The notes under the pieces are model-generated. The model did no database searches and was not told where the DNA came from. It saw only the letters and a list, made by a program, of their open reading frames with translations. From positions 14,838-78,837 of the forward strand of contig CAZWVF010000003.1 of assembly GCA_964637695.1 (NCBI GenBank): a stretch of 64,000 nt of DNA. Reading direction: 5' to 3'. Below are positions 8,095 through 43,464 of the stretch, one piece after another. Both the position numbers and the translations under genes were made by a program. Each line of letters starts with the position of its first letter. Within the stretch, counting starts at the first letter, position 1. The stretch is from an uncultured Gemmatimonadota bacterium (lineage in GTDB: Bacteria > Blakebacterota > Blakebacteria > Blakebacterales > Blakebacteraceae).

Positions 8095-8216
8095 GGTTAT
8101 CTCCGATCTGCTGTCTCGGTTTCGACTTTACAGCAGCAGGTTTAGGATACCACCTCCGCTCCCCTTTCTGTTACTGTCTAATTATCATCCCTCTGTTTTT
8201 CAGTGTGGTCACTCGT

Positions 8217-17510: not shown

Positions 17511-17786
17511 TTACCAGGAGTGCTCGATTGCACCAGGTTCACAGGCCGCCGTGCAGGGCAGGGGAGGCTGCGAGCCGACCGGTTTGCATTCGGCGCACGA
17601 GTACTTGATCTTTTTCCTGTGTTCATCCGTGACGGCTGCCACGACATCGTCGTAATCGTCGGTAATCATTTCCAGTACCCCCGCCGGGCACGCAGCAACG
17701 CAATCATTACAGGATGTGCACAGGTTGCTGTCGATCGTGATGAAGAATTCTCCGGAGCCGTCCTTGTAACCATAGTTTGCTCTCAT
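17511..17786 (-). CDS. 2[4Fe-4S] ferredoxin, Alvin/Thauera Fdx type (probable electron donor to benzoyl-CoA reductase)
   Basis: CTSCNDCVAACP and CAECKPVGSQPPLPCTAACEP. The second cluster has the extended Cx2Cx8Cx3C spacing seen in the Allochromatium/Thauera benzoyl-CoA-reductase ferredoxin. The start overlaps the stop of the upstream ATPase gene (ATGA). Confidence 0.8.
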   Translation of the reverse strand: MRANYGYKDGSGEFFITIDSNLCTSCNDCVAACPAGVLEMITDDYDDVVAAVTDEHRKKIKYSCAECKPVGSQPPLPCTAACEPGAIEHSW

Positions 17787-18658
17787 GACCTTACTTTTCC
17801 TTCTTTCTCGGCCAGAGCCCTGGCAAAGAGAGCACCTCCCAGAGCACCGGCGATCTGGGTGTCATGTTTCGGCTCGAGTGCCTCCACACCCATTTGTTTT
17901 GTCAGTCGCCTGACGACTCCGGCGTTCTTGGCGATGCCTCCGGTTATCGCGAAATCTTCCTCCACACCTATCCGTTCGAGAAGGGCGAAGACACGATCGG
18001 CCATGGCGGAACAGTACGCAGCCAGTACATCGTTCTTGGGCCATCCCTGACGCAGCAGACCGGTTGCCTCCGATTTGGCGAATATTACACATGTACTGCT
18101 TACAGGCTCCGGTTCCTCATCTATATCGAAGCTCAGATCCCCTATCTCCTCGATCGAGATCTCGAGCAGGTCGGCGAACACTTCCATGCCGCGTCCCGTT
18201 CCGGCGGCACATTTGTCGTTCATCAGGAACTCCTGGACCTTCCCCTTCTCGTCGATCCGGATCGCCTTGCAGTCCTGGCCGCCCATATCCAGAATCGTCC
18301 TCACGGCAGGGCCGTACATGTAGTTCGCACCTCGTCCGTGACAGGCGATCTCTGTAATTGCCCGGTCAGCAAAAGGTACGTTCACGCGCCCGTAGCCGGT
18401 ACCCACTACGTAATTGAGGTCATCCAGGGTCATTCCGGTGTCTTCAAAGGCCCAGTTCATGGCATTCTGTGCACTCTCGGGGCTGTCTGAACCGGTCCGC
18501 ATGTTGCTGTAGGCGAAGAGTTCTCCATCGGTCATTATCACCGCCTGCGAACTGACCGATCCGACGTCGACTCCGGCCGATATCACACCGGCCTGTTGCC
18601 AGTCTCTGTCAGGATCTCTCCAGTTGTATTCTTTCCAGCGCCAGTACTCGGTCGTCAT
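17783..18658 (-). CDS. class I benzoyl-CoA reductase ATPase subunit (BcrA/BzdQ/BadF-like, 291 aa)
   Basis: AGVDVGSVSSQAVIM, NDKCAAGTGRGME, TCVIFAKSEATGL, IAGALGGALFA are activase-fold motifs with the Cys pair. Its start overlaps the upstream gene's stop by 4 nt. Confidence 0.8.
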   Translation of the reverse strand: MTTEYWRWKEYNWRDPDRDWQQAGVISAGVDVGSVSSQAVIMTDGELFAYSNMRTGSDSPESAQNAMNWAFEDTGMTLDDLNYVVGTGYGRVNVPFADRAITEIACHGRGANYMYGPAVRTILDMGGQDCKAIRIDEKGKVQEFLMNDKCAAGTGRGMEVFADLLEISIEEIGDLSFDIDEEPEPVSSTCVIFAKSEATGLLRQGWPKNDVLAAYCSAMADRVFALLERIGVEEDFAITGGIAKNAGVVRRLTKQMGVEALEPKHDTQIAGALGGALFARALAEKEGKVRS

Positions 18659-19455
18659 GACTGCTCACCCCTTTCGCTGTCTGCTGCGGCCCTTTCGGCT
18701 GCCACCAGGGCGGCACCTATGGCTGCTGTGTACTCCGGATCGGGTGGTATCAGCAGTTCTGTCTCCAGGTCGCGGCCGAGTGAATCTATGAAGCCGACGT
18801 TGTAGGCCAGACCACCAACCAGAGCCACTGCCGGTTCTATTCCGACCCGCCGGACCATTGAGCTTATCCGGCTGGCTATGGCATCGTGGACAGCGCGGGC
18901 GATGTCTTCCTTCGGGGTCTTTGCATGAACCAGGCTCACCACTTCCGACTCGGCGAACACAGCACACTGGGCATTCATCGGGATCTCTCGATCCGACCTC
19001 AGAGAGAGAGCTCCGAACTCTTCCAGCGGAACTTCCAGGGCGCGGGCCATCGACTCGGTGAAGGAGCCGGCTCCGGCCGCGCATTTTTCGTTTACGACGA
19101 AGTCGAGTACCTTGCCCCCCTCATCGCATCTGACACCGCGACCCTCTTCGGCACCCACGTCAATAACGGTCCGCACGTTGTCGAAGAAGAAGTGTGCTCC
19201 CCTGGCTGCCGCCCCGACCTCCGTAATGTCGTCACGGGCCATGGGGACATCTTTCCGGCCTGCTCCAGTAGAAGTGATGTTCGGGATTTCGCTGTAATCG
19301 AGGTCGGCTGTCTGTGATGCCTGTTTCAATGCCTCCTGAAGTGCACCCTCCGTGTCGAGCCCTGCCGTAACCAGCGACTTGCTGATAATCTCTCCGTCGC
19401 GGAGGAATACCACCTTGACATTCTTGGCACCCATGTCCACACCAATTGAAATCAT
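18655..19455 (-). CDS. class I benzoyl-CoA reductase ATPase subunit (BcrD/BzdP/BadG-like, 266 aa)
   Basis: MISIGVDMGAKNVKVVFL, NEKCAAGAGSFTE, QCAVFAESEVVSL, TAAIGAALVAA. AAGGGAG RBS 9 nt before ATG. Confidence 0.8.
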   Translation of the reverse strand: MISIGVDMGAKNVKVVFLRDGEIISKSLVTAGLDTEGALQEALKQASQTADLDYSEIPNITSTGAGRKDVPMARDDITEVGAAARGAHFFFDNVRTVIDVGAEEGRGVRCDEGGKVLDFVVNEKCAAGAGSFTESMARALEVPLEEFGALSLRSDREIPMNAQCAVFAESEVVSLVHAKTPKEDIARAVHDAIASRISSMVRRVGIEPAVALVGGLAYNVGFIDSLGRDLETELLIPPDPEYTAAIGAALVAAERAAADSERGEQS

Positions 19456-19479
19456 GAATGTAAACTCCCTTGTTCTTTA

Positions 19480-20790
19480 TCAGGCCATGGCCCGGCTCAG
19501 ATCGAGCGTCTCCATGAATGCATCGATCCGGGTCATGGTTCTGGCTTCATCGAATTCCCGCTCATCACCCATGTTTCCCTCGAATGTCATGACAGGGTAT
19601 CCTGCTTCCTGCAGGGCCAGCCTGTTCTCGGCTATTCCCACCGAAAGGCCTTCGCAGCCGCGGTTGTAATGCAGCATTACACCTTCGAGCTGCCACTCCC
19701 TGGCGATACGGATCATCATCTCGTTCTTGTAGCGGGGAGAATAGAAGTGCTGCCACTCCGGTTTGCTCAGGTTCCAGTCGGCCAGAACGCGCAGGGCCTG
19801 CTCGCGCGTTTCCAGCTTGATCCCCAGTTGTTCGGGAGTGGTCCGCGGGCCCCAGCTGCCGTCGGGTTTGACCTCCCAGATACCTATCAGGCCGAAAGTG
19901 TATAGTGAACCCACAGAAACCACTCCGAATTCCTCCAGATAGCGGAAAATCTTGAGGAAGCCCCAGGGAGGCTGTGTATCGGAGATCAGGCGGCACCTCT
20001 CGTTGGCTACCGCTGCAATTCCATTATCTACCCGATCCTGTACCTCGTCGCGGAGTTCCTCGTAGAAGTCAGCCACCGATCCGGCGTGCTTCTCAAGCGT
20101 GCCCAGCACGTAGAGAGAGTACATGGTCTTTTCATCCAGAGGAGCTGGTATCGCCTTGTTGAGGGTGCAGATCTCGGCCCAGAGGGAGGTACTGCGGCAC
20201 TCATTATTTACCGCCTCGATGAGCAGGTCGTCGTTATACTCACGACCCGTTACTTTTTCCATCCACTCGATACCATCCATCATCTGGCCCACCACGTAAT
20301 CGAGCCCATTGTCGTCCAGCTCTTCGTATGGACCGCATCCAACATCGATGCAGAAGCTGGGGATATCGGGCTCCATGTCGGTGACCACCTGGTACCATTT
20401 TGCATGGCTGCAGCAGATGTGATCCTGCCAGATGAAATCGGGTTTGGGGAATTTGCCTCCGAATGCATACTCGTCGAGCAGGATCGAACCCCAGTAGTTT
20501 CGCATGTAGGAACAGAGGTCACGGGCATAACCCGCCTTTTCAACCGCTTCCAGACATCGTGTGGAAAACTCCCTGTTAAATGCGATAGAGGCTCCGTAGG
20601 GCTCCGATGTTATCGACCTGACATCAGTTCCCAAACCGGCAGGGATGGCGTCGAATGACCATGCACCTCCAGCCCAGCGGATGGCTCCTTTTCCGTGGGC
20701 ATCTGCATAGTCGGTGTAGTATTCCTGCCTCAGTTCCTTTGCTTTATTCCAGCATTCCAGGGGCCTGGTGGGGTACTTTGCATCGGCCAT
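19480..20790 (-). CDS. class I benzoyl-CoA reductase catalytic subunit (BcrB/BzdO/BadE-like, 436 aa)
   Basis: 436 aa, HgdA/BcrB-family. AAGGAG RBS 6 nt before the ATG at 20790. Size and gene order match the BzdO/BcrB position. Confidence 0.8.
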
Positions 20791-20832
20791 CTCATGCTCC
20801 TTTAACCCGATCTTTAAGAGAATCCGGGTGAA

Positions 20833-21960
20833 TTAGAAAAGGTCCTCGTCGCTCAGCATCTCCAGGAACGCCTCCACACGGACCCTGAACTGTCCGAGCG
20901 GCACCGTGACATCGAATTCCAGGAAGAGTGTTTTTATTCCGGCCTCATGGAAGGCTTTCTGAAGTGCGGGGATATCCAGCTCATGCGGATCGCAGAACTT
21001 CTGCTGTATCAGGATTGCCCCGCTTGCATCGTAGTCCTTTGCAAGCTCAAGCACATGCGGAATACGGGTACGTACCGGCCAGTCTTTCGAGGGACAGGCG
21101 GGACGCTCAACGTAACGGCGGGCTATCGACTCGAGCGGATCTCCGCCGTTCGATTCTGCTTCATTCCAGAAATACCGCGTCCCGGTGCAGTGATCGTCGA
21201 TAACAACTGTCGCTCCTACCGACTCAACCATCTCGACGAAATCGGTATCGTCATCTTCGCTGCCGACCAGCATAAGACGTACTCCGGTGGAACGGCCGGT
21301 CGAGTGATCCTTCAACCGGGGGAGAACCCTCTCCATCTCCCGGTTGTGGTCCTCTTTCGCAGTGGTCTGGCTGGAAACGGTCAGGTACATGGCCTCCAAC
21401 CCGGTCAGTGGAGGATTCTCCTGTTGACGCAGGTCGTAGATTTCTTTCTGATGCCGGCGATTCCGGTTCATCAGTTTGATTCCGCCATTCAGCTTTTCAT
21501 CTGAAATCGGTTCACCCGACCACTCCTCCAGGGAACTCTTGAATTTCTCCAGTTCGCCCCTCAGGAATGGTACGGCTCGCTGGCTCTGCACATGATTGGG
21601 CATCGGCAGGTAGTAGCTGAAATCGATCGGAATGTGCATCTCCCAGCTAGAGAATGCCTGCCTGATGTGCAGGCACGACTGGGCTATCATGATGCCATCC
21701 AGGTAATCGAACCGGCCCTTCAATCCCTGTGCAAGGCAATCGCGGCAGAAGGGGCAGAACATGCCGAAGATATGGGGCTCGGTTAAGTCCTGAGGTTCAT
21801 GACTTCCCAGAATCCGCACCGGGAGGATATCGGCGGCACAGAGGATCTCTTCCGGAACGTATGTACAGAAGTATCCCATCACTTTTCCGCCTGTTTCCTC
21901 TTTCCAGTTCTGTGCGTAGGAATGGCGGTTTTCGGCCCATTTCTGGAACTGCTGCATCAT
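20833..21960 (-). CDS. class I benzoyl-CoA reductase catalytic subunit (BcrC/BzdN/BadD-like, ~375 aa)
   Basis: MMQQFQKWAENRHSYAQNWKEETGGKVMGYFCTYVPEEILCAADILPV is an HgdB/BcrC-family N-terminus. GGAGG RBS 8 nt before the ATG at 21960. The track start at 21978 uses a TTG with no RBS. Confidence 0.75.
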   Translation of the reverse strand: MMQQFQKWAENRHSYAQNWKEETGGKVMGYFCTYVPEEILCAADILPVRILGSHEPQDLTEPHIFGMFCPFCRDCLAQGLKGRFDYLDGIMIAQSCLHIRQAFSSWEMHIPIDFSYYLPMPNHVQSQRAVPFLRGELEKFKSSLEEWSGEPISDEKLNGGIKLMNRNRRHQKEIYDLRQQENPPLTGLEAMYLTVSSQTTAKEDHNREMERVLPRLKDHSTGRSTGVRLMLVGSEDDDTDFVEMVESVGATVVIDDHCTGTRYFWNEAESNGGDPLESIARRYVERPACPSKDWPVRTRIPHVLELAKDYDASGAILIQQKFCDPHELDIPALQKAFHEAGIKTLFLEFDVTVPLGQFRVRVEAFLEMLSDEDLF

Positions 21961-22467: not shown

Positions 22468-22836
22468 ATGAGAATAATTATGAAACGTTCAGCCTCAGCG
22501 ATACCGATCCCGATCAGGCGAGCCTTGCGCAAGTTTGGTCAGGATATCCGTGACGCAAGATTGCGACGACGAATTCCGGTAGTCGTCATGGCCGAAAGGG
22601 CGTCAATCAGCCGCACTACGCTGAACAAGCTGGAAAAAGGCGAACCGGGCGTCTCGATTGGCAGCTATGCCACCGTGCTTTTCGTATTGGGTATGGCCGA
22701 AAGGCTCAGCGATCTGGCGGATGTGAAGAGCGATATAGTGGGGCTTGAACTGGAAGAGGAGCGTTTGCCCAAGCGTATCCGGAAATCAGGCCGGCGGAAA
22801 TCGGTTCAGCCTGACCTGAAAATAAAAAAAGTGTAA
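22468..22836 (+). CDS. hipB: XRE-family HTH regulator, HipB-like antitoxin
   Basis: SISRTTLNKLEKGEPGVSIGSYATVLFVLGM is a Cro/C1-type HTH. It lies immediately upstream of hipA. Start at 22468 or at the M at 22480. Confidence 0.7.
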   Translation: MRIIMKRSASAIPIPIRRALRKFGQDIRDARLRRRIPVVVMAERASISRTTLNKLEKGEPGVSIGSYATVLFVLGMAERLSDLADVKSDIVGLELEEERLPKRIRKSGRRKSVQPDLKIKKV

Positions 22837-22841
22837 AAGCA

Positions 22842-24074
22842 ATGGATACCGAAGTTCTTGTCTATGTTGATGTTGACGGCGCTTCGTACCTCACGGGACG
22901 GCTATGGGCACGAGTACGTAAGAACCGTCAAAGCGCCACATTTGAGTATGAACAAACATGGCTTGAGTATAAAGACCACTTCTCCCTGGAGCCGGCTTTA
23001 AAACTGGGTTCCGGTCCCTATCACACGGCAGGGGATAAACCTTTGTTTGGCGCAATCGGCGATTCCGCGCCCGATCGCTGGGGCAGGATGCTCATGCGCC
23101 GGGCCAAACGTCGGAGCGCAGAACGTGCAGGCGAGACGCCACGCACTTTGATGGAAATTGACTATCTGCTGATGGTCGATGACGAAGTGCGGCAGGGCGC
23201 ATTGCGATTTGCGACCACGGAGGGTGGACCATTTCTTTCCGCACGTGATGCTGCCCCCATTCCACCATTGATTGACCTGCCAAAGCTGTTATCGGCTGCC
23301 GACCATGTGGTCAGCGATTCTGACAGTGATGAAGATTTGCACCTGTTGCTTGCGCCTGGCTCATCATTGGGTGGTGCCCGTCCCAAGGCTTCTGTCCGGG
23401 ACAGGGACGGGGCGTTGGCGATTGTCAAGTTTCCGCACCGAGGTGATGAAATCGACACTGTGAGATGGGAGGCAGTCGCGTTGACGCTTGCTGCAAATGC
23501 AGGTCTTTCGGTGCCGAAATGGCGATTGGAGAATGTTGTCGATAAGCCGGTCCTTCTCTTGCGACGCTTCGATCGCATGGACGGCATGCGCATCCCCTTT
23601 CTGTCAGCCATGAGTATGCTTGGTGCCACAGATAACGAGGCTCGCAGCTATCTCGAATTCGTGGATGCCCTGCGTCAGCACGGGGCAGCTCCGAAAGAAG
23701 ACATGCACGCCCTGTGGCGGCGTATCGTCTTCAGCATCCTGATTTCCAATACGGACGACCACCTGCGCAATCACGGCTTTCTTTATGAAGGCCCCGATGG
23801 ATGGCGGTTGGCTCCGGCATATGACCTTAATCCTGTGCCTGTGGACATCAAACCACGCATCCTGACGACAGCGATCAATCTTGATGACGGTACAGCATCG
23901 GTTGATCTGGCGATGAGTGTTGCCGAGTATTTTGAACTCACGACTGATAAAGCGCGCAGCATAGTATCTGAGGTCGAAAGTGCAGTGGCCCAATGGCGAG
24001 AGACTGCAACAGGCTTGGGCTTTCGTGCCGGCGAAATCGACCGCATGGCATCAGCCTTCGAGTATCAATCATAA
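22842..24074 (+). CDS. hipA: HipA-family serine/threonine kinase toxin
   Basis: The HipA N-terminal coupling domain and the C-terminal kinase motifs LAPGSSLGGARPKASV and ISNTDDHLRNHGFLY...LAPAYDLNP are present. Gene order is hipB-hipA. Confidence 0.85.
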   Translation: MDTEVLVYVDVDGASYLTGRLWARVRKNRQSATFEYEQTWLEYKDHFSLEPALKLGSGPYHTAGDKPLFGAIGDSAPDRWGRMLMRRAKRRSAERAGETPRTLMEIDYLLMVDDEVRQGALRFATTEGGPFLSARDAAPIPPLIDLPKLLSAADHVVSDSDSDEDLHLLLAPGSSLGGARPKASVRDRDGALAIVKFPHRGDEIDTVRWEAVALTLAANAGLSVPKWRLENVVDKPVLLLRRFDRMDGMRIPFLSAMSMLGATDNEARSYLEFVDALRQHGAAPKEDMHALWRRIVFSILISNTDDHLRNHGFLYEGPDGWRLAPAYDLNPVPVDIKPRILTTAINLDDGTASVDLAMSVAEYFELTTDKARSIVSEVESAVAQWRETATGLGFRAGEIDRMASAFEYQS

Positions 24075-31815: not shown

Positions 31816-33216
31816 TCAGCTGCCGGGGATTGTTTCATCTTCACGTATTTTCGGAGCGATCCCGATACCTGTGGCTGCGCAGATCAGTGCGAATAGAAAG
31901 CCGGTGTAATTCATGACCGCCCATGGAAGGTACTGGATGGTTGGTACACCAAGAGTGGCTGCCATGAACACACCGGCGGCGCTCCACGGGATCAGTGGAA
32001 CCACCACAGTTCCCGAATCCTCCGTTGTTCTGGACAGGTTCTTGGCGGCCAGATTCCGGCTCCTGAAGGCTGAGGAGAAGAGCTCCCCCGGAACAATAAT
32101 TGACAGGTAGCTCGAGCCGGTAACCAGGGCAGTGGTGATGCCGGTTGCCACTGTCGAAGCCACCAGGCCGAAGGTGGTTTTTATTCTGGTCATCAGAGCT
32201 TCCAGAATGCGGTCGAGCAGGCCGCAGTGGCTCATGATTCCCGCGAATCCAAATGCGCAGAACACGATCAGGGTAACATCCATCATCGCCATCATTCCGC
32301 CCCGGGCCAGAAGGCTGTCCAGCTCGGCAACGCCGGTGGAGGGCTGATAGCCCAGAACGGTCGATTCGAGTACAACCCTGAATGAAGCTCCCTGAAAGAG
32401 TACGGCGATGATCGCGGCAACGAGGCTGGCCAGGAGGATCCCGGGCAGGGTGGGGCGTTTCCTGATGGCGAACCAGAGGATGATCGCCAGTGGTGTCAGC
32501 AGAACCAGGTTGAACCTGAAAGAGCTGCGGAGACCTTCCTGGAGGGTTCCTACGTCCACAACAGCATCCGCCGAAATACCGAGACCTGCGATCAGATAGA
32601 CGATCAGGCCGAGCGTCCAGGCAGGTGCCGTGGTCCAGAGCATCCATCTGATATGGTCGAAGAGGTTCGCCCTGGCTATAATCGGAGCCAGGTTGGTTGT
32701 GTCGCTGAAGGGGCTCAGTTTGTCTCCGAAGTAGGCACCGGAGACCACCGCGCCGGCCGCAGCTCCCATGGGAACTCCCAGGCCCTGGGCTACTCCGATC
32801 AGGGCGACACCCACCGTTCCCACTGTTCCCCAGCTCGTACCTGTCGAAATGGAGATAATGGAACAGAGTATGCATGCTGTCACCAGGTAGAGACGGGGAG
32901 AGATCAGCTTGAGGCCGTATGAGACCAGCATTGGGATAGTACCGGCTGCAATCCAGGTGGATATGAGTGCGCCAACGGTGATCAGGATCATCACGGCGGG
33001 CATGGCCTTGCTGAGGGATGAGACGATCCCCTCTTCCATGTCGCGCCAGGTATATCCCAGGCGCAGAGATACGAATCCGGCTGCAGCCGCTGCTCCCAGC
33101 AGAACTACCTCTATGCGGTATCCAAGCCAGGCGTAACCGACACTCAGCAGGATCGCCATGATAACCAGAGGTGTCAGCGCCTCCACCAGTGTCGGTTTGC
33201 GAGTTTCACTCTTCAT
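31816..33216 (-). CDS. NhaC-family Na+/H+ antiporter
   Basis: Polytopic membrane protein. GTSWGTVGTVGVALIGV and SGAYFGDKLSPFSDTTNLA are NhaC family signatures. A paralogue lies at 57546..58949. The minus-strand ORF 31841..32875 is an alternate-frame artefact. Confidence 0.8.
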   Translation of the reverse strand: MKSETRKPTLVEALTPLVIMAILLSVGYAWLGYRIEVVLLGAAAAAGFVSLRLGYTWRDMEEGIVSSLSKAMPAVMILITVGALISTWIAAGTIPMLVSYGLKLISPRLYLVTACILCSIISISTGTSWGTVGTVGVALIGVAQGLGVPMGAAAGAVVSGAYFGDKLSPFSDTTNLAPIIARANLFDHIRWMLWTTAPAWTLGLIVYLIAGLGISADAVVDVGTLQEGLRSSFRFNLVLLTPLAIILWFAIRKRPTLPGILLASLVAAIIAVLFQGASFRVVLESTVLGYQPSTGVAELDSLLARGGMMAMMDVTLIVFCAFGFAGIMSHCGLLDRILEALMTRIKTTFGLVASTVATGITTALVTGSSYLSIIVPGELFSSAFRSRNLAAKNLSRTTEDSGTVVVPLIPWSAAGVFMAATLGVPTIQYLPWAVMNYTGFLFALICAATGIGIAPKIREDETIPGS

Positions 33217-33929: not shown

Positions 33930-35168
33930 TTAAAACCAGACCGTAATACGCGTAACCAGTGACGCCAGACCGGGCGGGAATGCACCCTCCTCATCGCCAA
34001 ATGTAAACCCGCCGTAAACAACCATGTCCGCGTTCTGAGCGATCGAGATGTCGAGTCGTGGATTCAGCACCAGCGAACCATCCGGTGTACCGAAGAAATA
34101 GAAACTTCCCGTTGACAGGTCGGTCAATGAGTTTCTCACCCCCACCAGGTACCACCACGGCCCGACCGGTTCGCCATACATGATGTACGCCAGCCAGTCG
34201 TGAACGGGGTAGGGGGTATTACTTTCGGCTCGGCCGTTGTACAGAGCTTCGGCAATCAGGTATATGCCGCTGTTCAGCGTGTAGTCGGTGCCGAATGCCA
34301 TCCTGCTGAAATTGTCCTCCACTTCCATCCAGTTGTAGTTGCCTTCGAACCAGAGCCCCAGACCCAGAAACTCACCGGAGAATTCCAGTCCGGCTGCCCG
34401 GCGTCGCTGCGTATATGGAAACCAGAAATCGGGATTGAGAGCCGTGGAGTCGGTCACTGAATGAGCTGTCAACGCCACGTCGTATCCAATTGCCTTCAGG
34501 TGTGTTCCCAATCGCAGGGCGTATCCGGTGTCGGCGAAGTTATCGCCCGGGGCGGCGATCAGGGCGAGCTGTCCTCCGAAACCCCACCTGTAATCCAGCC
34601 GGAGTGCCGTCACTCCCTCCTTTTCATAGGTCGGATCGAACTGGTTCTTCCTGTGGAAGAGATCGGTGGGATTGAAACTGTAGGCCGGTCCCCACGACAG
34701 CTGCTGCTTTCCGGCCCGCAGGCGGATGCTGCCCAGCTGCCAGCTCAGATAGGCGTTGTCGAGATAGAAGCGTTCACCGGGCAGATAGAAAACAGCGGGC
34801 ACGCCTGCCTGATCCAGTGCTTCCGAGACCGAGGGAGGCAGGTACGGGCTGATATCTCTTCGGACAGCAGAGTGGTACACGATGAAGTTCAGATTCCCAT
34901 TGAAACTGAGCCCCTCTCCATTACCACTGCTGAAATCGAGTCTCAGCTTGGAGGCGTCCATAAGGAGTTCTTTCATCTCCTTCTGGTAGTCCACCTGGAG
35001 AGTGTGTTCATAATAACCTGCGATGCCCAGTTCCTGGCCGTAAGCTGGTCTAAATGATGTCAGCAGGCCTGCCGGGAGGAAGAACACGTATGTCATGACC
35101 ACAGCCATTACCGCCCGGGTACTGCAGGAGTTCTGAAGTCTGTCCCGGAGGTTGCCAGAGAGTCTCAT
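33930..35168 (-). CDS. putative outer-membrane beta-barrel protein (porin-like), transcribed after the MMPL exporter gene
   Basis: N-terminal signal-like region (...AVMAVVMTYVFFLPAGLLTSFRPAYGQE), alternating amphipathic beta-strand pattern and a C-terminal aromatic residue (ITVWF). An alternative start at the ATG complement of 35106-35108 is possible. Confidence 0.5.
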   Translation of the reverse strand: MRLSGNLRDRLQNSCSTRAVMAVVMTYVFFLPAGLLTSFRPAYGQELGIAGYYEHTLQVDYQKEMKELLMDASKLRLDFSSGNGEGLSFNGNLNFIVYHSAVRRDISPYLPPSVSEALDQAGVPAVFYLPGERFYLDNAYLSWQLGSIRLRAGKQQLSWGPAYSFNPTDLFHRKNQFDPTYEKEGVTALRLDYRWGFGGQLALIAAPGDNFADTGYALRLGTHLKAIGYDVALTAHSVTDSTALNPDFWFPYTQRRRAAGLEFSGEFLGLGLWFEGNYNWMEVEDNFSRMAFGTDYTLNSGIYLIAEALYNGRAESNTPYPVHDWLAYIMYGEPVGPWWYLVGVRNSLTDLSTGSFYFFGTPDGSLVLNPRLDISIAQNADMVVYGGFTFGDEEGAFPPGLASLVTRITVWF

Positions 35169-35182
35169 CGTGCCGCTCCTTT

Positions 35183-38100
35183 CTAACGTCCGGGAGGAAT
35201 GGGGCGGGCAAGGGCCGCCATCGTGAACATCGAGGGATCGGGCTCCTGTGCAAAGGTGATCTCTGTCATCTCCATCAGTGTGCGTGAGTTCTTCACGTGG
35301 CTGACCATCTCGAACCTCATCGCAACAGTTCTGCCCTCGATTTCCTGAAAATCGCTTATATAAAGCGTCTTCAGGTGTTCACCTTCGTTGTAGTACTCGA
35401 TCTGCCTGGTAAGTGCATCTTCCACTCCCGCCCATAAAATGATGTAGTCGTACGATGGTCCATCGGGTGTGGGTGTGCATTTCAGCTTAACGCATTCCAC
35501 TCCCTCCAGTCGTTCGTAGCCCATGATCTCAGCAGTGTAATCTTCAGAGAAGTCTCCCGACGCCATATCCTCGTAAGAGAAATCTGAACCCTGAGCGCTC
35601 TGGCGGCGGGTGTGTCCGGCGAAATGACGTGTGAGATCGCGCCTCTTCATGTAGTACCAGATATCATCGCCGCCATTCAGCTGCAGGATCTTGTCTCCGG
35701 CCACACGCGCCGGTTCGACATAGGCCATCAGGCCCACGTCGCCTCCCTGGGCCGACCACGACCGGATCGTGAATGTGCGCTCGGCACCGGTAGAAGTTGT
35801 TATGGTCTGGCGTATTACACTATAGGAGTGATCGACTCGCTCGACATTTTCGATCCTCTCAATCCACCCGGCACCGGTCTCCTGCGCCCGAGATATCGAA
35901 GGGAGCAGGATGAGCAGGGCAAGAGAGAGCATGGCGGCAGTCGAAACCGGACTTGCCTTGAAATTACGTCCTCCGAGCAACTTCATGAGAGCCGGCAGGA
36001 ATACCACGGTTGTAATGAAGCAGGTTCCGACACCGAGCATGAGGACGATCCCGAAACTCGCCATGGCCACGTGAGGTATGAAACCGAGACTGCCGAATCC
36101 AATCATTGTCGTTAATGTAGTAAGCAGGATGGCCCGCCCGACGAATCGGAAGGAATTGTAAACCCGGTCGGAGCCCGCGGATGTATCCTCCTGGAACCGG
36201 TGAATAGCGTGAACGCCATCGTCGATTCCTATTCCGAGGATGACAGGTATCGCCATGAAGTTCATGAAGTTGTACTTCATGCCAATCAGATACATGATGC
36301 CCAGCATCATTACGGAGCCACCCAGAAGAGGCAGCAGTGACAGGAGTCCGACCGGTCCCCTGAAGGTGATCAGCAGGAGCACTACTATAACCGCAAAGGC
36401 GACGATCATGCCCTTGCGTCCATCCCGGCCCGATTCGGTCAGGTAATCGAGTGTGAGCTGAGCCGTGCCGCTGATACGGGGATCGACCTCCTCCATCTGT
36501 TCGCTGAACCTCTTCAGATTCGTCTGATGCCACAGATAATCACGGGCGGTTATATTGACCAGGAACTGTTCTGATCCGTCTCGCGGGAGCAGGCTCCTCT
36601 TAAGGACATCGGGCAGGTCATCAACACCGAACCGTTCGGTATTGCTCATCCGGATCAGGTTCTCCTTCATCCGGGCGTGCCAGCTGCTGCTGACAGCTGA
36701 GCTTATCTGCGGATCGATACCGGATTCCAGAAGTCGTACAAGCGTCGGCAGAACAGCATTATCATCAATCGTATTCGTATCGCTGTCGTAGCCGGTCAAC
36801 CGGTCAAGACTCCTTACAGCTCTGTCGAGACCACCGGTGAAGGCCAGATTGCTCATCAGGTCCAGATTATCTCCCAGCCTGCTGATCTCGGCAACCAGCT
36901 CTGCGTCGCTGGTGCCGGCCCGCCAGACGGGTGTTCTGGAACTCTCCGTCCGGGAGCGGAATGCATCCAGTCTGCCTGAATATTCTTCGAAACGGTCCTC
37001 TGTAGGCAGGAAATCGCTGATGGTCGACACCTCGCCGACCATTGACAGATTCTTGATACGTTTTTTCATTTCGCGGGCTTCTTCGATCGAATTGACGATC
37101 ACCCAGCCTCCTTCGGTCATCGACCCATATCGCTCCGGAATTTCCCGCTGGAGCCGGACGTTTTCCAGCCCTCTCGGTTCCAGGTTCAACCAGTCGAGTT
37201 CGAACTCGTTCTTCAGACCGGTCCAGAGTGAAACTCCGATCACAACCAGAAAGAAAACCAGAAACAGACCGGAATGACGCCAGCTGAGAGCTGCAATCTT
37301 TCCGATTACCGGAAAACCTTCACTCGCTCCAGGTACTGACGAGGTCTTACCTTTTCGTTCATGACGACGACTGCGCAGCACGAGAAGCGGTGGCAGAGTC
37401 AGAAATACTGCCAATAGAGTCAGGAAGAGGCCGGCTCCGATAGTGAACCCCAGCTCGCTGATACCTTTCGTCTCACCGACAATCAGGGCCAGGAATGCGG
37501 CGGCTGTGGTAAGCCCGCCGGCCAGCACTCCAACACCGGTTCCCGAGATTGTATAGATCAGAGATTCGCGGATCGAGTGACCGCGGCTCCTCTCTTCGTA
37601 ATACCGGGTGATCAGGTGAATTGCGAAGTCGATTCCAAGCCCCAGCAGTATTATCGCGAACATGGCCGTGAAGAGGTTCAGTTCTCCATATACTATCTCG
37701 AGGGTGGCAGCGGTCCATGTTATCCCGATGATAAGAGGCAGAAGAGCAACCAGCGGCAGCACCCACCCGCCGAAATTCCTGGCCAGCAGAAGATAGATGA
37801 GAACGAGAGCGACCAGCATCAGCACCGCACTGCTGGTTGTCATGGCGTCCATCTCCTCCTTCTGAAGAGGCCCGTTTCCGGTGAGTCCTATCTCGACATC
37901 CGGAAACTGCGGCCGCAGCTCAGCCAGGAGTTCCTGAACCTGGACGGTCATTTCCATCAGGGGATCGATCTCCAGGAGAGGATGGAGTGGAGTACAGAGG
38001 ATGAGCATCATCCCGCGATCGAGGCTCAGAGCCCATGGATCCCCTGCGATCATTGCATCAGCCGCCTCTTCGACGGAGGCGTAGTCTTCACCTGCAAATC

Positions 38101-38650
38101 GCGCCGCAAGGATCTCCAGCGAGCGCTCCATGCCGTGCATCGACTGAGCTATCTCCACCTCATCGTTACGCAGGTTCTCTTCACTGTCGGTATACTCCCG
38201 CTCGAAACTGTCATTGATACCACGCAGGATACCGACCAGAGAGGGATCGGAGAGCTGGTCGATTGTGCGGTCCAGGTCCTTCTCCTCAACCAGCATCAAT
38301 CCATGATCGATAAAGTAATCGAGAGGTATGGTGCCCTGGACGTTATAGAGGAGATCGAGAGCTTCCAGGCGCGGGATTATCACCTGGGCAGCCTCTACCA
38401 TCCTGTCCCTCTCACCTTCCAGCACTACCACCGTGTTCGCCTCACCAAAGCGTTCAGTTACTTCCAGGTATGATTGGACAGCCGGTGAATGCGCAGGAAG
38501 CATATCGACAACATTTGTCTTCATCTCGAGTCCCCGGGAGATGAATGCTGCGATAATGGTGATCACGATCACAGTGATCAGTATTCGCCAGGGGTGGTCG
38601 TCACTGATCCCTGCCAGCAGACCGCCGATGTTTTTCAATATCTTTCTCAT
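35183..38650 (-). CDS. MMPL/RND-superfamily exporter (two 6-TM bundles, HpnN-like) with a fused C-terminal LolA-like 'outer membrane lipoprotein-sorting' domain (~250 aa)
   Basis: 1155 aa. Two sterol-sensing-like TM blocks (GIDFAIHLITRYYEER..., GIGIDDGVHAIHRFQED...). After the last TM comes a soluble domain (SRAQETGAGWIERIENVERVDHSYSVIRQTITTSTGAERTFTIRSWSAQGG...YIILWAGVEDALTRQIEYYNE) of the LolA-like type that is usually encoded by a separate adjacent gene. Minus-strand ORFs 35964..36533 and 37473..37766 and plus-strand ORFs 35612..36115 and 37577..38473 are artefacts. Confidence 0.8.
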   Translation of the reverse strand: MRKILKNIGGLLAGISDDHPWRILITVIVITIIAAFISRGLEMKTNVVDMLPAHSPAVQSYLEVTERFGEANTVVVLEGERDRMVEAAQVIIPRLEALDLLYNVQGTIPLDYFIDHGLMLVEEKDLDRTIDQLSDPSLVGILRGINDSFEREYTDSEENLRNDEVEIAQSMHGMERSLEILAARFAGEDYASVEEAADAMIAGDPWALSLDRGMMLILCTPLHPLLEIDPLMEMTVQVQELLAELRPQFPDVEIGLTGNGPLQKEEMDAMTTSSAVLMLVALVLIYLLLARNFGGWVLPLVALLPLIIGITWTAATLEIVYGELNLFTAMFAIILLGLGIDFAIHLITRYYEERSRGHSIRESLIYTISGTGVGVLAGGLTTAAAFLALIVGETKGISELGFTIGAGLFLTLLAVFLTLPPLLVLRSRRHERKGKTSSVPGASEGFPVIGKIAALSWRHSGLFLVFFLVVIGVSLWTGLKNEFELDWLNLEPRGLENVRLQREIPERYGSMTEGGWVIVNSIEEAREMKKRIKNLSMVGEVSTISDFLPTEDRFEEYSGRLDAFRSRTESSRTPVWRAGTSDAELVAEISRLGDNLDLMSNLAFTGGLDRAVRSLDRLTGYDSDTNTIDDNAVLPTLVRLLESGIDPQISSAVSSSWHARMKENLIRMSNTERFGVDDLPDVLKRSLLPRDGSEQFLVNITARDYLWHQTNLKRFSEQMEEVDPRISGTAQLTLDYLTESGRDGRKGMIVAFAVIVVLLLITFRGPVGLLSLLPLLGGSVMMLGIMYLIGMKYNFMNFMAIPVILGIGIDDGVHAIHRFQEDTSAGSDRVYNSFRFVGRAILLTTLTTMIGFGSLGFIPHVAMASFGIVLMLGVGTCFITTVVFLPALMKLLGGRNFKASPVSTAAMLSLALLILLPSISRAQETGAGWIERIENVERVDHSYSVIRQTITTSTGAERTFTIRSWSAQGGDVGLMAYVEPARVAGDKILQLNGGDDIWYYMKRRDLTRHFAGHTRRQSAQGSDFSYEDMASGDFSEDYTAEIMGYERLEGVECVKLKCTPTPDGPSYDYIILWAGVEDALTRQIEYYNEGEHLKTLYISDFQEIEGRTVAMRFEMVSHVKNSRTLMEMTEITFAQEPDPSMFTMAALARPIPPGR

Positions 38651-39309
38651 GATCCCAGCCCTCCTTTGTCTTCCTCGTCTGCCTGCTTTTCTCTCTTTTC
38701 CAGAGCCTTCTTCAGGAAGTCGACAAAGGTCAGTGTGAAGCGTTCTCTTTCCGGTTTGTCCATCTCCTGCCAGTGTGCCCCCAGCCAGCGGTCGTGAACG
38801 CTGTCGAGGGCCATCAGCAGTTCCATCTCAAGTTCTTCGGGCAGATCTGTGCGCATTGCACCTGTCTCACGACCGTACCGGATCAGTCCCCTGACCCACT
38901 CCATTGCTTCGGTGAAAACCATACCCAGGTGCCCCGACTTGCGCATCTCTTCGGGCAGTTCCCAAACCGAGCGCCCGAAACCGAGCATCCAGGGATGGAT
39001 CTCCAGATCTACAAAGGGGTGGAGGTAAAGTTCTTCGATCTTCTCCCAGAAAGTTGCTGTGTTGAAGGCCGAGAGAGCGAATTGGGGTACGTCGATGAAC
39101 TGCAGCCAGTAGTGCCTGACTACCGTTGCGATAAGATCTTCCTTATCCTCGAAGTAGTAGTAGGCGGTTCCCTTGCTGATGCCGGCCCGCTCCAGGATCC
39201 TGTTCATGGAGGTTTTCTCATAGCCGTTGGCCGCGAATTCTTGTGCGGCAGCCTCCAGAATCAGTTTCTTCTTGTCTTTGGGCATCTTTTCGAATCGTGG
39301 CAGAGGCAT
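38647..39309 (-). CDS. TetR/AcrR-family regulator of the MMPL exporter operon
   Basis: KKKLILEAAAQEFAANGYEKTSMNRILERAGISKGTAYYYFEDKEDL is the HTH. AGGAG RBS 8 nt before the ATG at 39309. The stop overlaps the MMPL start (ATGA). The track ORF extends 90 nt upstream with no RBS. Confidence 0.8.
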   Translation of the reverse strand: MPLPRFEKMPKDKKKLILEAAAQEFAANGYEKTSMNRILERAGISKGTAYYYFEDKEDLIATVVRHYWLQFIDVPQFALSAFNTATFWEKIEELYLHPFVDLEIHPWMLGFGRSVWELPEEMRKSGHLGMVFTEAMEWVRGLIRYGRETGAMRTDLPEELEMELLMALDSVHDRWLGAHWQEMDKPERERFTLTFVDFLKKALEKREKQADEEDKGGLGS

Positions 39310-39614
39310 CTGAACGCTCCTCGTTTTTTCTTGCCTGTGCTCGTTTTTCCGTAGACCTGTCGGTGTATACGAACTGGTTATACTTAATGTTTCGACCACA
39401 TGGTTTATAATTATAATTCTGCTTCAGTCAAGATCAAAGAAGATTGCATCGGAGCTGTACAGGCAGTTCATAAATGATAATCCGTAGAATAACCGCTATC
39501 GGGAGAATATCTTGACATCGTCAACCGGTGGCATAAGATACCCATCGATCATACTTATCAAGCCGGAAGGAACATGCCATAGAAGACCTGGGCAGGAAGA
39601 TCGCTGAGAAGGGA

Positions 39615-41030: not shown

Positions 41031-42701
41031 ATGATCGAATTCCTGGGCAAGAAGGTGCGGGGCCGCTTCGGACTGCCTTCAGGTGTAATCGCGACCAACA
41101 GCGATACCGCCGGATGGATGATCCGGAATATCCCGCAGATCGGATTCTTCAACGGCAAGAGTACAACTATCGAGCCTCGCCAGGGCTATGACGAAGACAT
41201 CCTGACCCAGCCGGCACCAGATTCTTTATGGAACGCGGTCGGTTATGCCAACCCGGGTCTCGAAGCGATGGTGGAGGCTTTCAGGGAGTTGAAAGAGGCA
41301 TTCCCACCCGATGTTTTCCTGATGCCTCAGATCGGCGAAAGCAGTGCTGAAAGTTTCGAACACTGTGTGACCGAGTTCGACAGAGCAGGGGATGCAGTTG
41401 ACGGGATAGAGATCAACCTTTCCTGCCCCCATGTCGAGAAGGGGGGCATCCTGATCGGGTCTAATCCCGAAAGTGTTCACAGCATAGTGTCGGCATCCCG
41501 GCGGGCGACCGGAAAGCCTCTGATTGTGAAGTTGAATGCGGGCGTTCACAGGCTGGAGGAGGTCGCCCTGGCTGCTGTTGATGCCGGTGCGAACGCTCTA
41601 TCTGCCATCAATTCACTGGGTGGGCCGAACCCGGAGCTGAGCAACCAGTTCGGCGGTCTCTCCGGAGCGCAGGTTTTCCCTGCAACCCTGGAGACGATCC
41701 GGAAGATCAGGGGTGTTGTGGATCTGCCCTTCCTGGTGATGGGCGGGATCAGGGGCGCAGCCGACATCAGGCGTCTCGATGAGATCGACAGTTCTTTTCT
41801 CTACGCGATCGGTTCAACTCTGGGCGGTCTCGACTCCGAACAGATAAGGCAGTACTTCCACCAGCTCGAGATCGATCTTGCAGAAGGGACCGATCTGGCA
41901 TCTGAAATGACGATGTCAGAGATGATGATGGATTACCGTCCCTTTGTGATCTCGGAGACCGTCGAATACAGTCCAACACTCAGACTGATCAGGTTCCATC
42001 AGAACCTGGATGCCGAAGTCGGTCAGTTCGTCTTCCTGAAGCTGGGGAGGGGGCTCTCCAAACCATTCTCGGTTGCAAGGGATCGAGACTGTCTGGAACT
42101 GGTGGTGCGGAAGGTCGGGAAGATGACGGCCAAATCGTTCGATCTCAAACCGAATGATGTGGTTCGGATCAACGGTCCATTCGGTAAACCGTTCCAACTC
42201 CCCGCCGATCGGCTGGTCATATTCGTAGGTGCCGGAGTCGGTATAGCACCGATCCTGCATGCAGCCGAGCATCATGACGGCCCCTGCCGCTTCGTCATAG
42301 GGGCGGTGACGGCGGACGAGCTGGTCTACCTGGATGATTTCAGGGAAATGGGCGAGGTGGCATATTCGACCGATGACGGAAGCGCCGGCTTCCACGGATT
42401 GGTTACCGAACTTCTGGATGAAGTGCTCGCTTCAGAAAGACCGGAGAATCCCTGTTTCTATACATGCGGTCCCGAGACAGCCATCAGGGGGGTGGATGAG
42501 ATCGCCCGCAGGTATGCACCCCCCGAAGATATCTATCATCTGGTCGAGCGGATGACCAGCTGCGGCATCGGAATCTGCGGCAAGTGCTCCATCCCTTCGG
42601 GGGAGCGGGCGTGTGTGGACGGACCGGTCTTTACAGCAACCGAGTTCACACCCGGGGACTATATGAGGGATAAGAGTGGAGCGAAGATCCCTGCCCACTG
42701 A
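41031..42701 (+). CDS. pyrD: dihydroorotate dehydrogenase class 1B catalytic domain (PyrD) fused to the electron-transfer subunit (PyrK: FAD/NAD-binding + 2Fe-2S)
   Basis: N-terminal half: TIM-barrel DHODH motifs (IEINLSCPH, LIVKLNAG, LVMGGIRGAADI). C-terminal half: FNR-like fold (RLIRFHQNL...FLKLG..., VIFVGAGVGIAPI) and the cluster motif CGIGICGKCSIPSGERACVDGPVF. Single continuous ORF of 556 aa. Confidence 0.8.
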   Translation: MIEFLGKKVRGRFGLPSGVIATNSDTAGWMIRNIPQIGFFNGKSTTIEPRQGYDEDILTQPAPDSLWNAVGYANPGLEAMVEAFRELKEAFPPDVFLMPQIGESSAESFEHCVTEFDRAGDAVDGIEINLSCPHVEKGGILIGSNPESVHSIVSASRRATGKPLIVKLNAGVHRLEEVALAAVDAGANALSAINSLGGPNPELSNQFGGLSGAQVFPATLETIRKIRGVVDLPFLVMGGIRGAADIRRLDEIDSSFLYAIGSTLGGLDSEQIRQYFHQLEIDLAEGTDLASEMTMSEMMMDYRPFVISETVEYSPTLRLIRFHQNLDAEVGQFVFLKLGRGLSKPFSVARDRDCLELVVRKVGKMTAKSFDLKPNDVVRINGPFGKPFQLPADRLVIFVGAGVGIAPILHAAEHHDGPCRFVIGAVTADELVYLDDFREMGEVAYSTDDGSAGFHGLVTELLDEVLASERPENPCFYTCGPETAIRGVDEIARRYAPPEDIYHLVERMTSCGIGICGKCSIPSGERACVDGPVFTATEFTPGDYMRDKSGAKIPAH

Positions 42702-42720: not shown

Positions 42721-43464
42721 TTGCCTTCCATGGCTACAGGGCTACCTTTGCGTAACTGTCAGATTCTCAATTCTCAGGAAATTTGTGTGAAACAGTCAGA
42801 TAAAAAGGTCAGTGAAAGCAGTTCCAAAGAGGAAACCGCCCATCCTCCAAATCGCCTTCTTGAAGGGGGAAAATTCGTACTGTGGGTTGTCGTCATCACA
42901 ATGGTGCTCAGAGTTTCCGTTGCAGAGGCCTACCGTGTTGAAATGTCATCGATGGAGAATACGCTTCTTCCCGGCGATACGATTCTTGGAAATAAGTTCC
43001 TGTATGGCGCCAGATTGCCCCTTATCGGCCTGCGTCTTCCGCCCATCCGAAACCCACGGCCCGGAGACATTATCGTTCTGCAACACCCCGTAGAGATCGG
43101 TCAGAGATTAATCAAAAGGGTGATAGCAGTAGAGGGGCAGGTGATCGAGATCCGCGACAAACAGCTCTATGTGGACAACCAGCCGGTCCCGCTGCCAGAC
43201 AGGGGCAAGTTCGTGGACAGCAGGGTTCTGCCCAGGGGAGTCTCGAATCGAGACAACTTCGGGCCGCTTACCGTACCTGATAAGAGTCTATTTGTGATGG
43301 GTGACAACAGGGACATTTCACTCGACAGCAGGGGGTGGGGATTTGTGGGTCGTGACAAAGTGCTCGGTCTGGCTATAATCATTCTCTACTCGTGGGACCA
43401 CGATCCAACAGAGCCTTTCTGGGAAAGGATACGCTGGAGCCGCTTTGGTCACATTCCAAATTAA
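42721..43464 (+). CDS. lepB: signal peptidase I
   Basis: TM anchor, then SMENTLLPGDTILGNKF (the catalytic Ser SM-x-P-T-L box), RVIAVEGQ, and GDNRDISLDSRGWGFV (catalytic Lys/box E region). The N-terminal extent is uncertain. Confidence 0.8.
   Translation: MPSMATGLPLRNCQILNSQEICVKQSDKKVSESSSKEETAHPPNRLLEGGKFVLWVVVITMVLRVSVAEAYRVEMSSMENTLLPGDTILGNKFLYGARLPLIGLRLPPIRNPRPGDIIVLQHPVEIGQRLIKRVIAVEGQVIEIRDKQLYVDNQPVPLPDRGKFVDSRVLPRGVSNRDNFGPLTVPDKSLFVMGDNRDISLDSRGWGFVGRDKVLGLAIIILYSWDHDPTEPFWERIRWSRFGHIPN

Follow-up and report, generated by a model that had tools for sequence, protein, structure and literature searches.

Deletion of AmeABCD in Castellaniella defragrans lowers the tolerance to monoterpene hydrocarbons and leads to more accumulation of Nile Red (PMC6394551). 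AmeABCD is the only system with genetics in which an HAE3-type RND pump is encoded together with a protein of the LolA superfamily and an outer-membrane barrel; its genes are all separate and lie inside a monoterpene catabolic island. ApeL, ApeM and ApeN, an RND transporter, a LolA-like chaperone and an outer-membrane acceptor, have been proposed to deliver aryl-polyene lipids to the outer membrane (PMC8253772). The pump HpnN (5khn, 6wu0) has 12 transmembrane (TM) helices, two periplasmic domains and a proton relay in TM4 and TM10, and works without a co-encoded carrier or barrel (PMC6394551). In Thalassolituus oleivorans, TOL_3187 is a fusion of MMPL and LolA-like parts that is induced on n-C28, with the porin TOL_3188 encoded next to it (PMC6304351). 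Here, we analysed a stretch of 64,000 nucleotides (nt) from an uncultured Gemmatimonadota bacterium (contig CAZWVF010000003.1, positions 14,838 to 78,837; hereafter the window), in which the region 33930-39309 carries a tetR gene, a gene for an MMPL/RND transporter fused to a LolA-like domain, and an outer-membrane β-barrel gene. We put at about 60% the probability that this cassette is a self-contained TetR-controlled operon that moves a hydrophobic or amphiphilic molecule from the inner membrane to or through the outer membrane. That hydrophobic cargo could take a route across the envelope had been proposed from the letters of the DNA (the sequence-only reading), and this idea fits what is reported for AmeABCD (PMC6394551), TOL_3187/TOL_3188 (PMC6304351) and ApeLMN (PMC8253772).

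The three open reading frames (ORFs) are co-directional on the minus strand and together fill the region 33930-39309, whose base composition is ordinary. The transporter has 1155 residues (35183-38650, minus strand; ORF and Pfam matches). Its transporter part (residues 1-889, 35984-38650, minus strand) is HpnN-like/HAE3-like, with 12 TM helices and two periplasmic domains (PF03176, E 1.4e-44). The junction that follows (residues 890-922, 35885-35983, minus strand) contains a 13th hydrophobic segment and is either a retained Sec signal peptide or a 13th TM segment, and the remainder is a LolA-like periplasmic domain of the TP_0789-like family PF17131 (residues 923-1155, 35186-35884, minus strand; E 1.5e-43). 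The barrel gene (33930-35168, minus strand) encodes 412 residues with a signal peptide, a C-terminal Phe and, in an AlphaFold model, about 18 strands. The regulator encoded by tetR has 220 residues (38647-39309, minus strand) and matches PF00440 (E 7.5e-17, 61.3 bits against a cut-off of 24). The tetR stop and the transporter start share 4 nt (ATGA) behind an AGGAGG Shine-Dalgarno sequence, and the barrel gene begins 14 nt past the transporter stop, its start being preceded by the Shine-Dalgarno sequence AAGGAG. The short overlap and the short gap, each with a strong Shine-Dalgarno sequence, indicate operon coupling. The sequence-only reading had the ORF positions and the domain calls right, and only its spacing of 15 bp between transporter and barrel has to be corrected to 14 nt. 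In a terminator scan, no terminator was seen 3′ of the barrel gene, with counts no higher than in shuffled sequence.

Compared with the described systems, the locus resembles TOL_3187/TOL_3188, as these are described, in having two MMPL domains together with a LolA-like one in one protein, followed in the same order by an immediate porin-like gene without a Pfam domain. It differs in that T. oleivorans is a gammaproteobacterium for which neither a tetR gene nor a junction analysis is reported. The evidence for TOL_3187/TOL_3188 is proteomic induction on n-C28 only, which its authors read as porin sorting or alkane uptake. AmeABCD shares the combination of parts with the locus, but its own parts are a DUF1302 barrel of 605 residues, a DUF1329 carrier of 451 residues and a COG4447 fourth protein, none of which was detected here. 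An AmeABCD-type cassette was rejected because neither the barrel nor the carrier domain matches DUF1302 or DUF1329, and an AmeABCD-like fourth gene is absent from the operon. ApeLMN resembles the locus in its RND transporter, LolA-like chaperone and outer-membrane acceptor; it differs in that the acceptor is a LolB-like DUF3261 lipoprotein and the genes are unfused within a biosynthetic cluster, and its function is likewise only proposed. HpnN is the best match of the pump in both sequence and fold, at about 21% identity.

Fusion of pump and carrier

The reading frame of the transporter is uninterrupted around 35.9 kb, where, by the sequence-only reading, a stop codon or frameshift separating the LolA-like domain would have refuted the fusion. 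We found the identical 1155-residue protein on two independent assemblies, a Logan contig of SRR6439360 and NCBI GCA_006243145.1, and the closest genome matches (67-68% identity) are from uncultured Gemmatimonadota. A database search (NCBI, JGI, ENA and Logan) returned 20 more fused proteins of 1151-1216 residues with 48-87% identity, and the next homologues below them were unfused transporters of about 900 residues with 45-51% identity. The clade of the window protein has another 13 fused cluster representatives of full length (63-87% identity, four data sources). When the C-terminal 250 residues were compared with 1.84 billion representatives, the matches were mostly stand-alone proteins of about 250 residues; three full-length fusions were present among the best 150, two of them from Rhodothermia and Limnochordia. 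The Limnochordia cluster already bears the IMG name 'RND superfamily exporter protein/outer membrane lipoprotein-sorting protein'.

Such a frame could also arise as an artefact, if an indel from sequencing or assembly had deleted the stop that separates two neighbouring genes. The genes of split relatives abut or overlap (e.g. in loci L014, L016 and L025), so that one indel would fuse them, and singleton fusions such as those at loci L012, L027 and L018 could stem from indel errors in metagenome-assembled genomes (MAGs). Multi-member fused clades cannot be errors of this kind. For the window clade, the identical protein on independent assemblies and the many fused orthologues, in which the ancestral start Met has already been lost, refute the artefact, to which we give next to no weight.

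The pump part was placed in a neighbour-joining tree with 200 bootstraps, in which the window clade is monophyletic at 100% bootstrap support and groups with an unfused paralogue (93%). A second fused clade, L001/P0016, also has 100% support and lies apart from the window clade. The fused L012 is nested within split Gemmatimonadota genes (90-98%), and the fused L027 pairs with the split L026 (98%), while the grouping of all fused forms as one clade received 0% support. These branchings point to at least four independent origins of the pump-carrier fusion, to which the Rhodothermia and Limnochordia lineages are added. Recurrent independent fusion argues that pump and carrier cooperate directly; as strong genomic evidence of joint action, it narrows the models by which hydrophobic molecules may cross the periplasm.

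One genome per GTDB species was scanned for the cassette, giving 80 loci that were classified by ORF calling and BLASTP. The survey of fused against split arrangements counted 55 split and 6 fused loci, in agreement with the expectation of the sequence-only reading that LolA-like proteins and barrels are usually encoded separately beside such pumps. The same reading took the fusion itself for an unusual arrangement, and here precedents stand against it, namely the fused proteins annotated in IMG and a report of 2018 of a fused protein with a downstream porin. The fused architecture is therefore already in databases and in one paper, and what is added here is evidence that the fusion recurs and that, as described below, a signal-peptidase site is conserved inside the fused proteins. 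The window is one more member of this group and not a new principle.

A probable internal signal peptide at the junction

After TM12, the junction consists of a positively charged n-region (KLLGGRNFK), an h-region (ASPVSTAAMLSLALLILLPSIS) and the residues S-R-A|Q, followed by E-T-G. With its n-region, its h-region and small residues at -3 and -1, it has the makeup of a Sec signal peptide with a signal peptidase I site. The 21 fused proteins that were aligned all have Ala at position -1, Ser, Gly, Ala, Thr or Val at position -3, and Gln at position +1; the h-region is poorly conserved. Stand-alone carriers bear the same kind of signal peptide, and other, younger fusions keep the Met and the n-region of the carrier (MWRAGILLIP in L012, MVKISVLIL in L027, MKTKTV in P0016 and MKRTLGIV in P0286). 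In the window clade, the ancestral start Met is gone from the junction, which indicates that the fusion is old. The AlphaFold2 (AF2) model gives residues 901-923 a predicted local distance difference test (pLDDT) value below 50 and shows disordered coil with no helix there, while the 12 helices of the pump are confident.

Judging from these motifs, signal peptidase I most likely cuts S-R-A|Q-E between A922 and Q923, for which we see slightly better than even odds. The 1155-residue protein would then be a precursor that is probably cut apart by this enzyme. The sequence-only reading had described the system as one polypeptide plus one partner; the continuous fused ORF bears out this description for the gene, but because a complete and conserved signal peptide with an AXA|Q motif sits at the junction, a single polypeptide is probably true of the precursor only. 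The conserved motif yields a simple testable prediction, which is processing of the precursor by signal peptidase I. The cytochrome b/c1 precursor FbcH of B. japonicum would be a precedent of this kind, and our literature search returned no citable precedent for bacterial internal signal peptides.

A different fusion was seen at locus L018 (4193-8077, plus strand; Gemmatimonadota MAG DAOVKT010000071.1), where one ORF of 1294 residues joins an MMPL pump to the barrel. It runs through the barrel's own Met and signal peptide and continues as ...ALPARA|QELQISGYYEH, and no LolA-like gene is present there. This fusion could be an assembly or indel error; if it is real, it must be cleaved, since an outer-membrane protein cannot work attached to an inner-membrane one. 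We tentatively propose that the MMPL-LolA fusions and the MMPL-barrel fusion of L018 may be envelope 'polyproteins', which signal peptidase I would cut at a Sec signal peptide lying internally, past the final TM helix of the RND pump, so as to release a stoichiometric carrier or outer-membrane protein beside the pump. In the same proposal, the cassette would be an unrecognised RND-powered route, like Lol or Lpt, for non-protein hydrophobic cargo, widespread in the FCB group and other uncultured phyla. The window also holds a signal peptidase I gene (42730-43464, plus strand; Peptidase_S26, E 4e-40) about 3.4 kb from the operon, which is probably a coincidence.

Components of the cassette and a possible transport route

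MMPL, LolA-like and barrel genes were found together in at least a dozen phyla, and the groups that hold them are Gemmatimonadota, Calditrichota, Cloacimonadota, Rhodothermales, Ignavibacteria, Chitinispirillaceae, Aminicenantes, Marinimicrobia, WOR-3, Zixibacteria, Lentisphaeria, Desulfobacterales and Bacteroidales MAGs. HAE3/HpnN-like pumps with LolA-fold carriers and private barrels are thus common in poorly studied phyla, and they are uncharacterised. Two gene orders occur, MMPL, LolA-like, barrel or LolA-like, barrel, MMPL, either of which may be headed by tetR. The split form of the first order (TetR, MMPL, TP_0789-like protein and a barrel of about 390 residues) has the same flanks as the fused form. 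At L030, L031, L033, L036, L039 and L041, and at some 25 loci more, the second order is headed by tetR, and the frequent overlap there of the LolA-like stop with the barrel start suggests that carrier and barrel are the tighter pair. The LolA-like gene lies directly 5′ of the barrel gene in the four commonest arrangements (49 loci), where stop and start also frequently overlap. All-against-all clustering of the ORFs of 82 loci gave TetR as the sole recurrent neighbour (44 of the 82); a TonB-type receptor (9 loci) and an ABC permease with its ATPase (5-7 loci) were sporadic, and no consistently linked further component, biosynthetic gene or lipid-biosynthesis gene was found in these loci. Tandem MMPL paralogues were seen at L001 (2152-8421, plus strand), in the order unfused gene of 915 residues, fused gene of 1164 residues and barrel, and also at L061 (8031-13684); it is with the unfused paralogue that the pump of the window clade groups (93% bootstrap), and a heteromeric pump is possible in these cases.

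The pump part matches the MMPL family PF03176 in two stretches with 152.8 bits against a cut-off of 20.5. A hydropathy scan showed 12 hydrophobic segments arranged as 1+5 and 1+5, with the 13th at residues 902-920. D341 and H345 in TM4 and D810, D811 and H814 in TM10 are invariant across 69 homologues. In MmpL3, HpnN and other MMPL proteins, Asp and His residues of TM4 and TM10 take part in proton coupling, and the invariant residues seen here fit a working proton-driven transporter. The closest NCBIfam models for the N-terminal 890 residues were HpnN, HAE3 and BstA, with scores far below the curated cut-offs. An HpnN equivalog was rejected (TIGR03480, 361.2 bits against 751.85; NF052374, 225.5 against 1100), as was the sterol transporter BstA (NF045600, 208.7 against 1400). 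Membership in HAE3 (TIGR00921) was also not reached, the pump being related to this family below its trusted score (217.7 bits against 351.9). The top sequence match in the PDB was HpnN (5khn, E 4.9e-37), and the AF2 model of the full-length protein had HpnN as its best Foldseek match (E 2.7e-32, TM-score 0.69), followed by MmpL4, MmpL5 and MmpL3. No domain of the hopanoid genes (shc/hpn) was present among the 33 window proteins scanned or among the recurrent neighbours in the 82 loci.

The LolA-like domain spans the last 230 or so residues of the transporter. PF17131, formerly LolA_like and now named TP_0789-like, matches residues 973-1149 with 149 bits (cut-off 30; E 1.5e-43), and the match takes in positions 5-184 of the 184 in the profile. 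Stand-alone proteins of this family or superfamily, of about 250 residues with a signal peptide and encoded by separate genes, are the usual form of the domain. Sequence matches in the PDB were 9tp6 (3e-17; 'outer membrane lipoprotein-sorting protein'), 4z48 (1.4e-13), 3bk5 (1e-10) and 3buu (5e-6; 'LolA superfamily'). A canonical LolA carrier was rejected, as PF17131 was the sole LolA-type match and no LolA-family match was obtained at E <= 0.01; the canonical Lol pathway is also disfavoured by the partner, which here is an RND pump and there the ABC transporter LolCDE. The literature searched on TP0789 and PF17131 gave nothing informative, that on the four structures gave no ligand or function, and a query combining 'outer membrane lipoprotein-sorting', RND and alkane returned no papers.

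For the barrel, the AlphaFold model built from 52 homologues has a pLDDT of 89.2 and a predicted template modelling (pTM) score of 0.79. The protein has an N-terminal signal peptide, a fold modelled as a closed antiparallel barrel and an invariant C-terminal Phe, as in an outer-membrane β-barrel that is a substrate of the β-barrel assembly machinery (BAM). The protein is assigned to no Pfam family. Membership in Wzi (PF14052) was rejected at 25.3 bits against 30.1, and membership in OprD/Occ for want of an OprD match, the resemblance being one of fold only with 6-13% identity. Residues 153-199 (QQLSWGP..NPTDLFHRK..DPTYEKEG) are the best-conserved segment; the model shows them as an unstructured loop, which may be a constriction or binding loop.

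From the gene and domain anatomy, the conservation of the cassette, the recurrent fusion and the conserved cleavage motif, all of which are established, we infer a direction of transport, an order of hand-off, cleavage, a substrate class and a logic for TetR. The 12-TM HpnN-like protein would draw on the proton-motive force to take its cargo out of the inner membrane's outer leaflet and up into its periplasmic domains, a step suggested by the conserved Asp and His residues of TM4 and TM10 and by knowledge of HpnN and MmpL3. The cargo would then be handed to the LolA-fold carrier of the TP_0789-like family and by the carrier to the dedicated barrel of about 18 strands encoded directly downstream. 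As signal peptides do, that of the carrier would insert after TM12 with its N-terminus inside and its C-terminus outside. Cleavage would free the carrier in a 1:1 ratio beside the pump, so that the fusion would serve as a device for translational coupling and not as a permanent tether. Repression by TetR probably acts through an operator that overlaps the promoter, and the cargo or a related ligand would release the regulator. Control by TetR and the absence of biosynthetic genes linked to the cassette make it somewhat more likely that a hydrophobic compound, exogenous or metabolic, is exported inducibly than that a lipid is delivered as a housekeeping task.

Several points weigh against this model. 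Besides the singletons that could be MAG errors, the bootstrap values come from a simple neighbour-joining tree, and 17 related MMPL loci had no LolA-like or barrel gene in the DNA examined, some of the contigs being short. The mature domain itself begins with the conserved QE seen at +1 and +2, and the fold may thus account for part of the motif's conservation. The uncharged stretch of the junction has 22 residues, long enough for a bilayer, and could cross the membrane as a 13th helix. This last point leads to a permanent tether, in which a stable uncleaved helix would let the pump anchor the LolA-like domain as an acceptor or adaptor, similar to a membrane-fusion protein or MmpS, that bridges or docks to the barrel rather than shuttling. 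The frame is continuous and conserved, repeated fusion would be expected if a fixed close proximity were advantageous, and static periplasmic adaptors have also been proposed by the authors of the AmeABCD study (PMC6394551). However, a small-X-A|Q motif after a helix-breaking Pro or Gly would have no evident purpose in a plain anchor, yet it is present in 21 of 21 proteins and in independent fusions. Moreover, AF2 leaves the junction unpacked against the TM bundle, no linker separates the motif from the domain, a tethered domain could not reach its outer-membrane partner, and where the pump gene comes last it is the barrel gene, not the pump gene, that the carrier gene adjoins. We hold a permanent tether, the main rival to cleavage, to be rather unlikely.

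The direction and the purpose of transport can also be read differently from the inducible export that we favour. The task of the cassette could be a housekeeping one, the delivery to the outer membrane of a lipid that the cell itself makes, along the lines of HpnN for hopanoids, BstABC for sterols and ApeLMN for aryl-polyene lipids. The nearest relatives by sequence and structure are HpnN and, by NCBIfam, BstA, LolA-fold carriers classically serve lipid moieties, and ApeL, ApeM and ApeN have been proposed to act in this way (PMC8253772). Against this, the scores lie far under the HpnN and BstA cut-offs, no lipid-biosynthesis genes are conserved beside a cassette whose sole recurrent neighbour encodes TetR, a TetR regulator of the ligand type is more typical of inducible efflux, and some genomes carry two copies (L001, L061), so that we regard endogenous lipid delivery as doubtful. 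Uptake of hydrophobic growth substrates (long-chain alkanes, fatty acids or terpenes) through the barrel and the carrier, as suggested for T. oleivorans, seems very improbable. TOL_3187/TOL_3188 were induced 42-fold or exclusively expressed on n-C28, and their authors propose that long-chain alkanes pass through the porin (PMC6304351). The barrel here resembles the substrate-specific uptake channels of the Occ/OprD type, but genes for alkane or terpene catabolism are absent from the flanks of the cassette within the window and the proton-relay residues are conserved. To our knowledge, every characterised RND/MMPL transporter uses proton influx to move its substrate outward from the inner membrane. 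The genetics of AmeABCD likewise indicate export and tolerance (PMC6394551).

Regulatory region and genomic neighbourhood

Upstream of tetR, a candidate promoter (TTGATC-16 nt-TATAAT, 39410-39437, minus strand) has 10 of 12 matches. Promoter-like sites in the region are not above expectation, with 5 found and 4.1 expected by shuffling. Just 3′ of the -10 box lies a candidate TetR operator half-palindrome, ACCAtgTGGTC (39394-39404, minus strand), followed by GAAAC. In the orthologous loci L006 and L007, the ACCATGTGGTC-GAAAC sequence recurs upstream of tetR as GACCAnnTGGTC-nAAAC, and the more distant cassettes L001, L004 and L005 have another motif, AAACGA..TCGTTT. We also observed a perfect 12-bp palindrome, TTATAATTATAA (39394-39416, minus strand), that overlaps the -10 box and abuts the ACCATGTGGTC motif. 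Either the TTATAATTATAA palindrome or the ACCATGTGGTC motif could be the TetR operator. The open frame of tetR reaches further upstream, to a GTG at 39399, and the protein reached no specific equivalog in NCBIfam.

On one flank, the cassette is followed by genes for a sulfatase, a penicillin amidase, a hybrid histidine kinase and a Na+/H+ antiporter and by an ORF without assignment, and on the other by pyrE, pyrF, a pyrD-pyrK fusion, signal peptidase I and an M3 peptidase. Aromatic-acid catabolism genes had been taken as a clue to the substrate by the sequence-only reading. The genes in question, for BcrAD/BadFG ATPases, HGD-D subunits and CoA ligases, lie at about 4-22 kb of the window and more than 12 kb from the cassette, with HipA, oxidoreductase, sulfatase, penicillin amidase, histidine kinase and antiporter genes in between. 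In the 75%-identical cassette L006, Pfam annotation showed different flanking genes. Given this distance and these different flanks, the aromatic-type genes give no information on the substrate.

The BcrAD/BadFG and HGD-D cluster with its nearby CoA ligases (4194-6443 and 8058-9479, plus strand; 17783-21960, minus strand) could be benzoyl-CoA-reductase-like or equally 2-hydroxyacyl-CoA-dehydratase-like, and it includes an ORF of 749 residues in which a ketopantoate-reductase-like (ApbA) domain is fused to an HGD-D domain. At 22468-24074 (plus strand), between this CoA-metabolism cluster and the cassette, an ORF of 122 residues precedes a gene for a HipA-like kinase toxin (HipA_C, E 5e-49), and the two are a possible toxin-antitoxin pair. 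The pyrD-pyrK fusion (41031-42701, plus strand; 556 residues) combines DHO_dh, PyrK FAD/NAD-binding and Fe-S domains and adjoins pyrE-like and pyrF genes. Two paralogous genes of the Na+/H+ antiporter family are present in the window (31816-33216, minus strand; 57546-58949, plus strand). The L006 cassette is also near antiporter and M14 peptidase genes, which hints at partial synteny.

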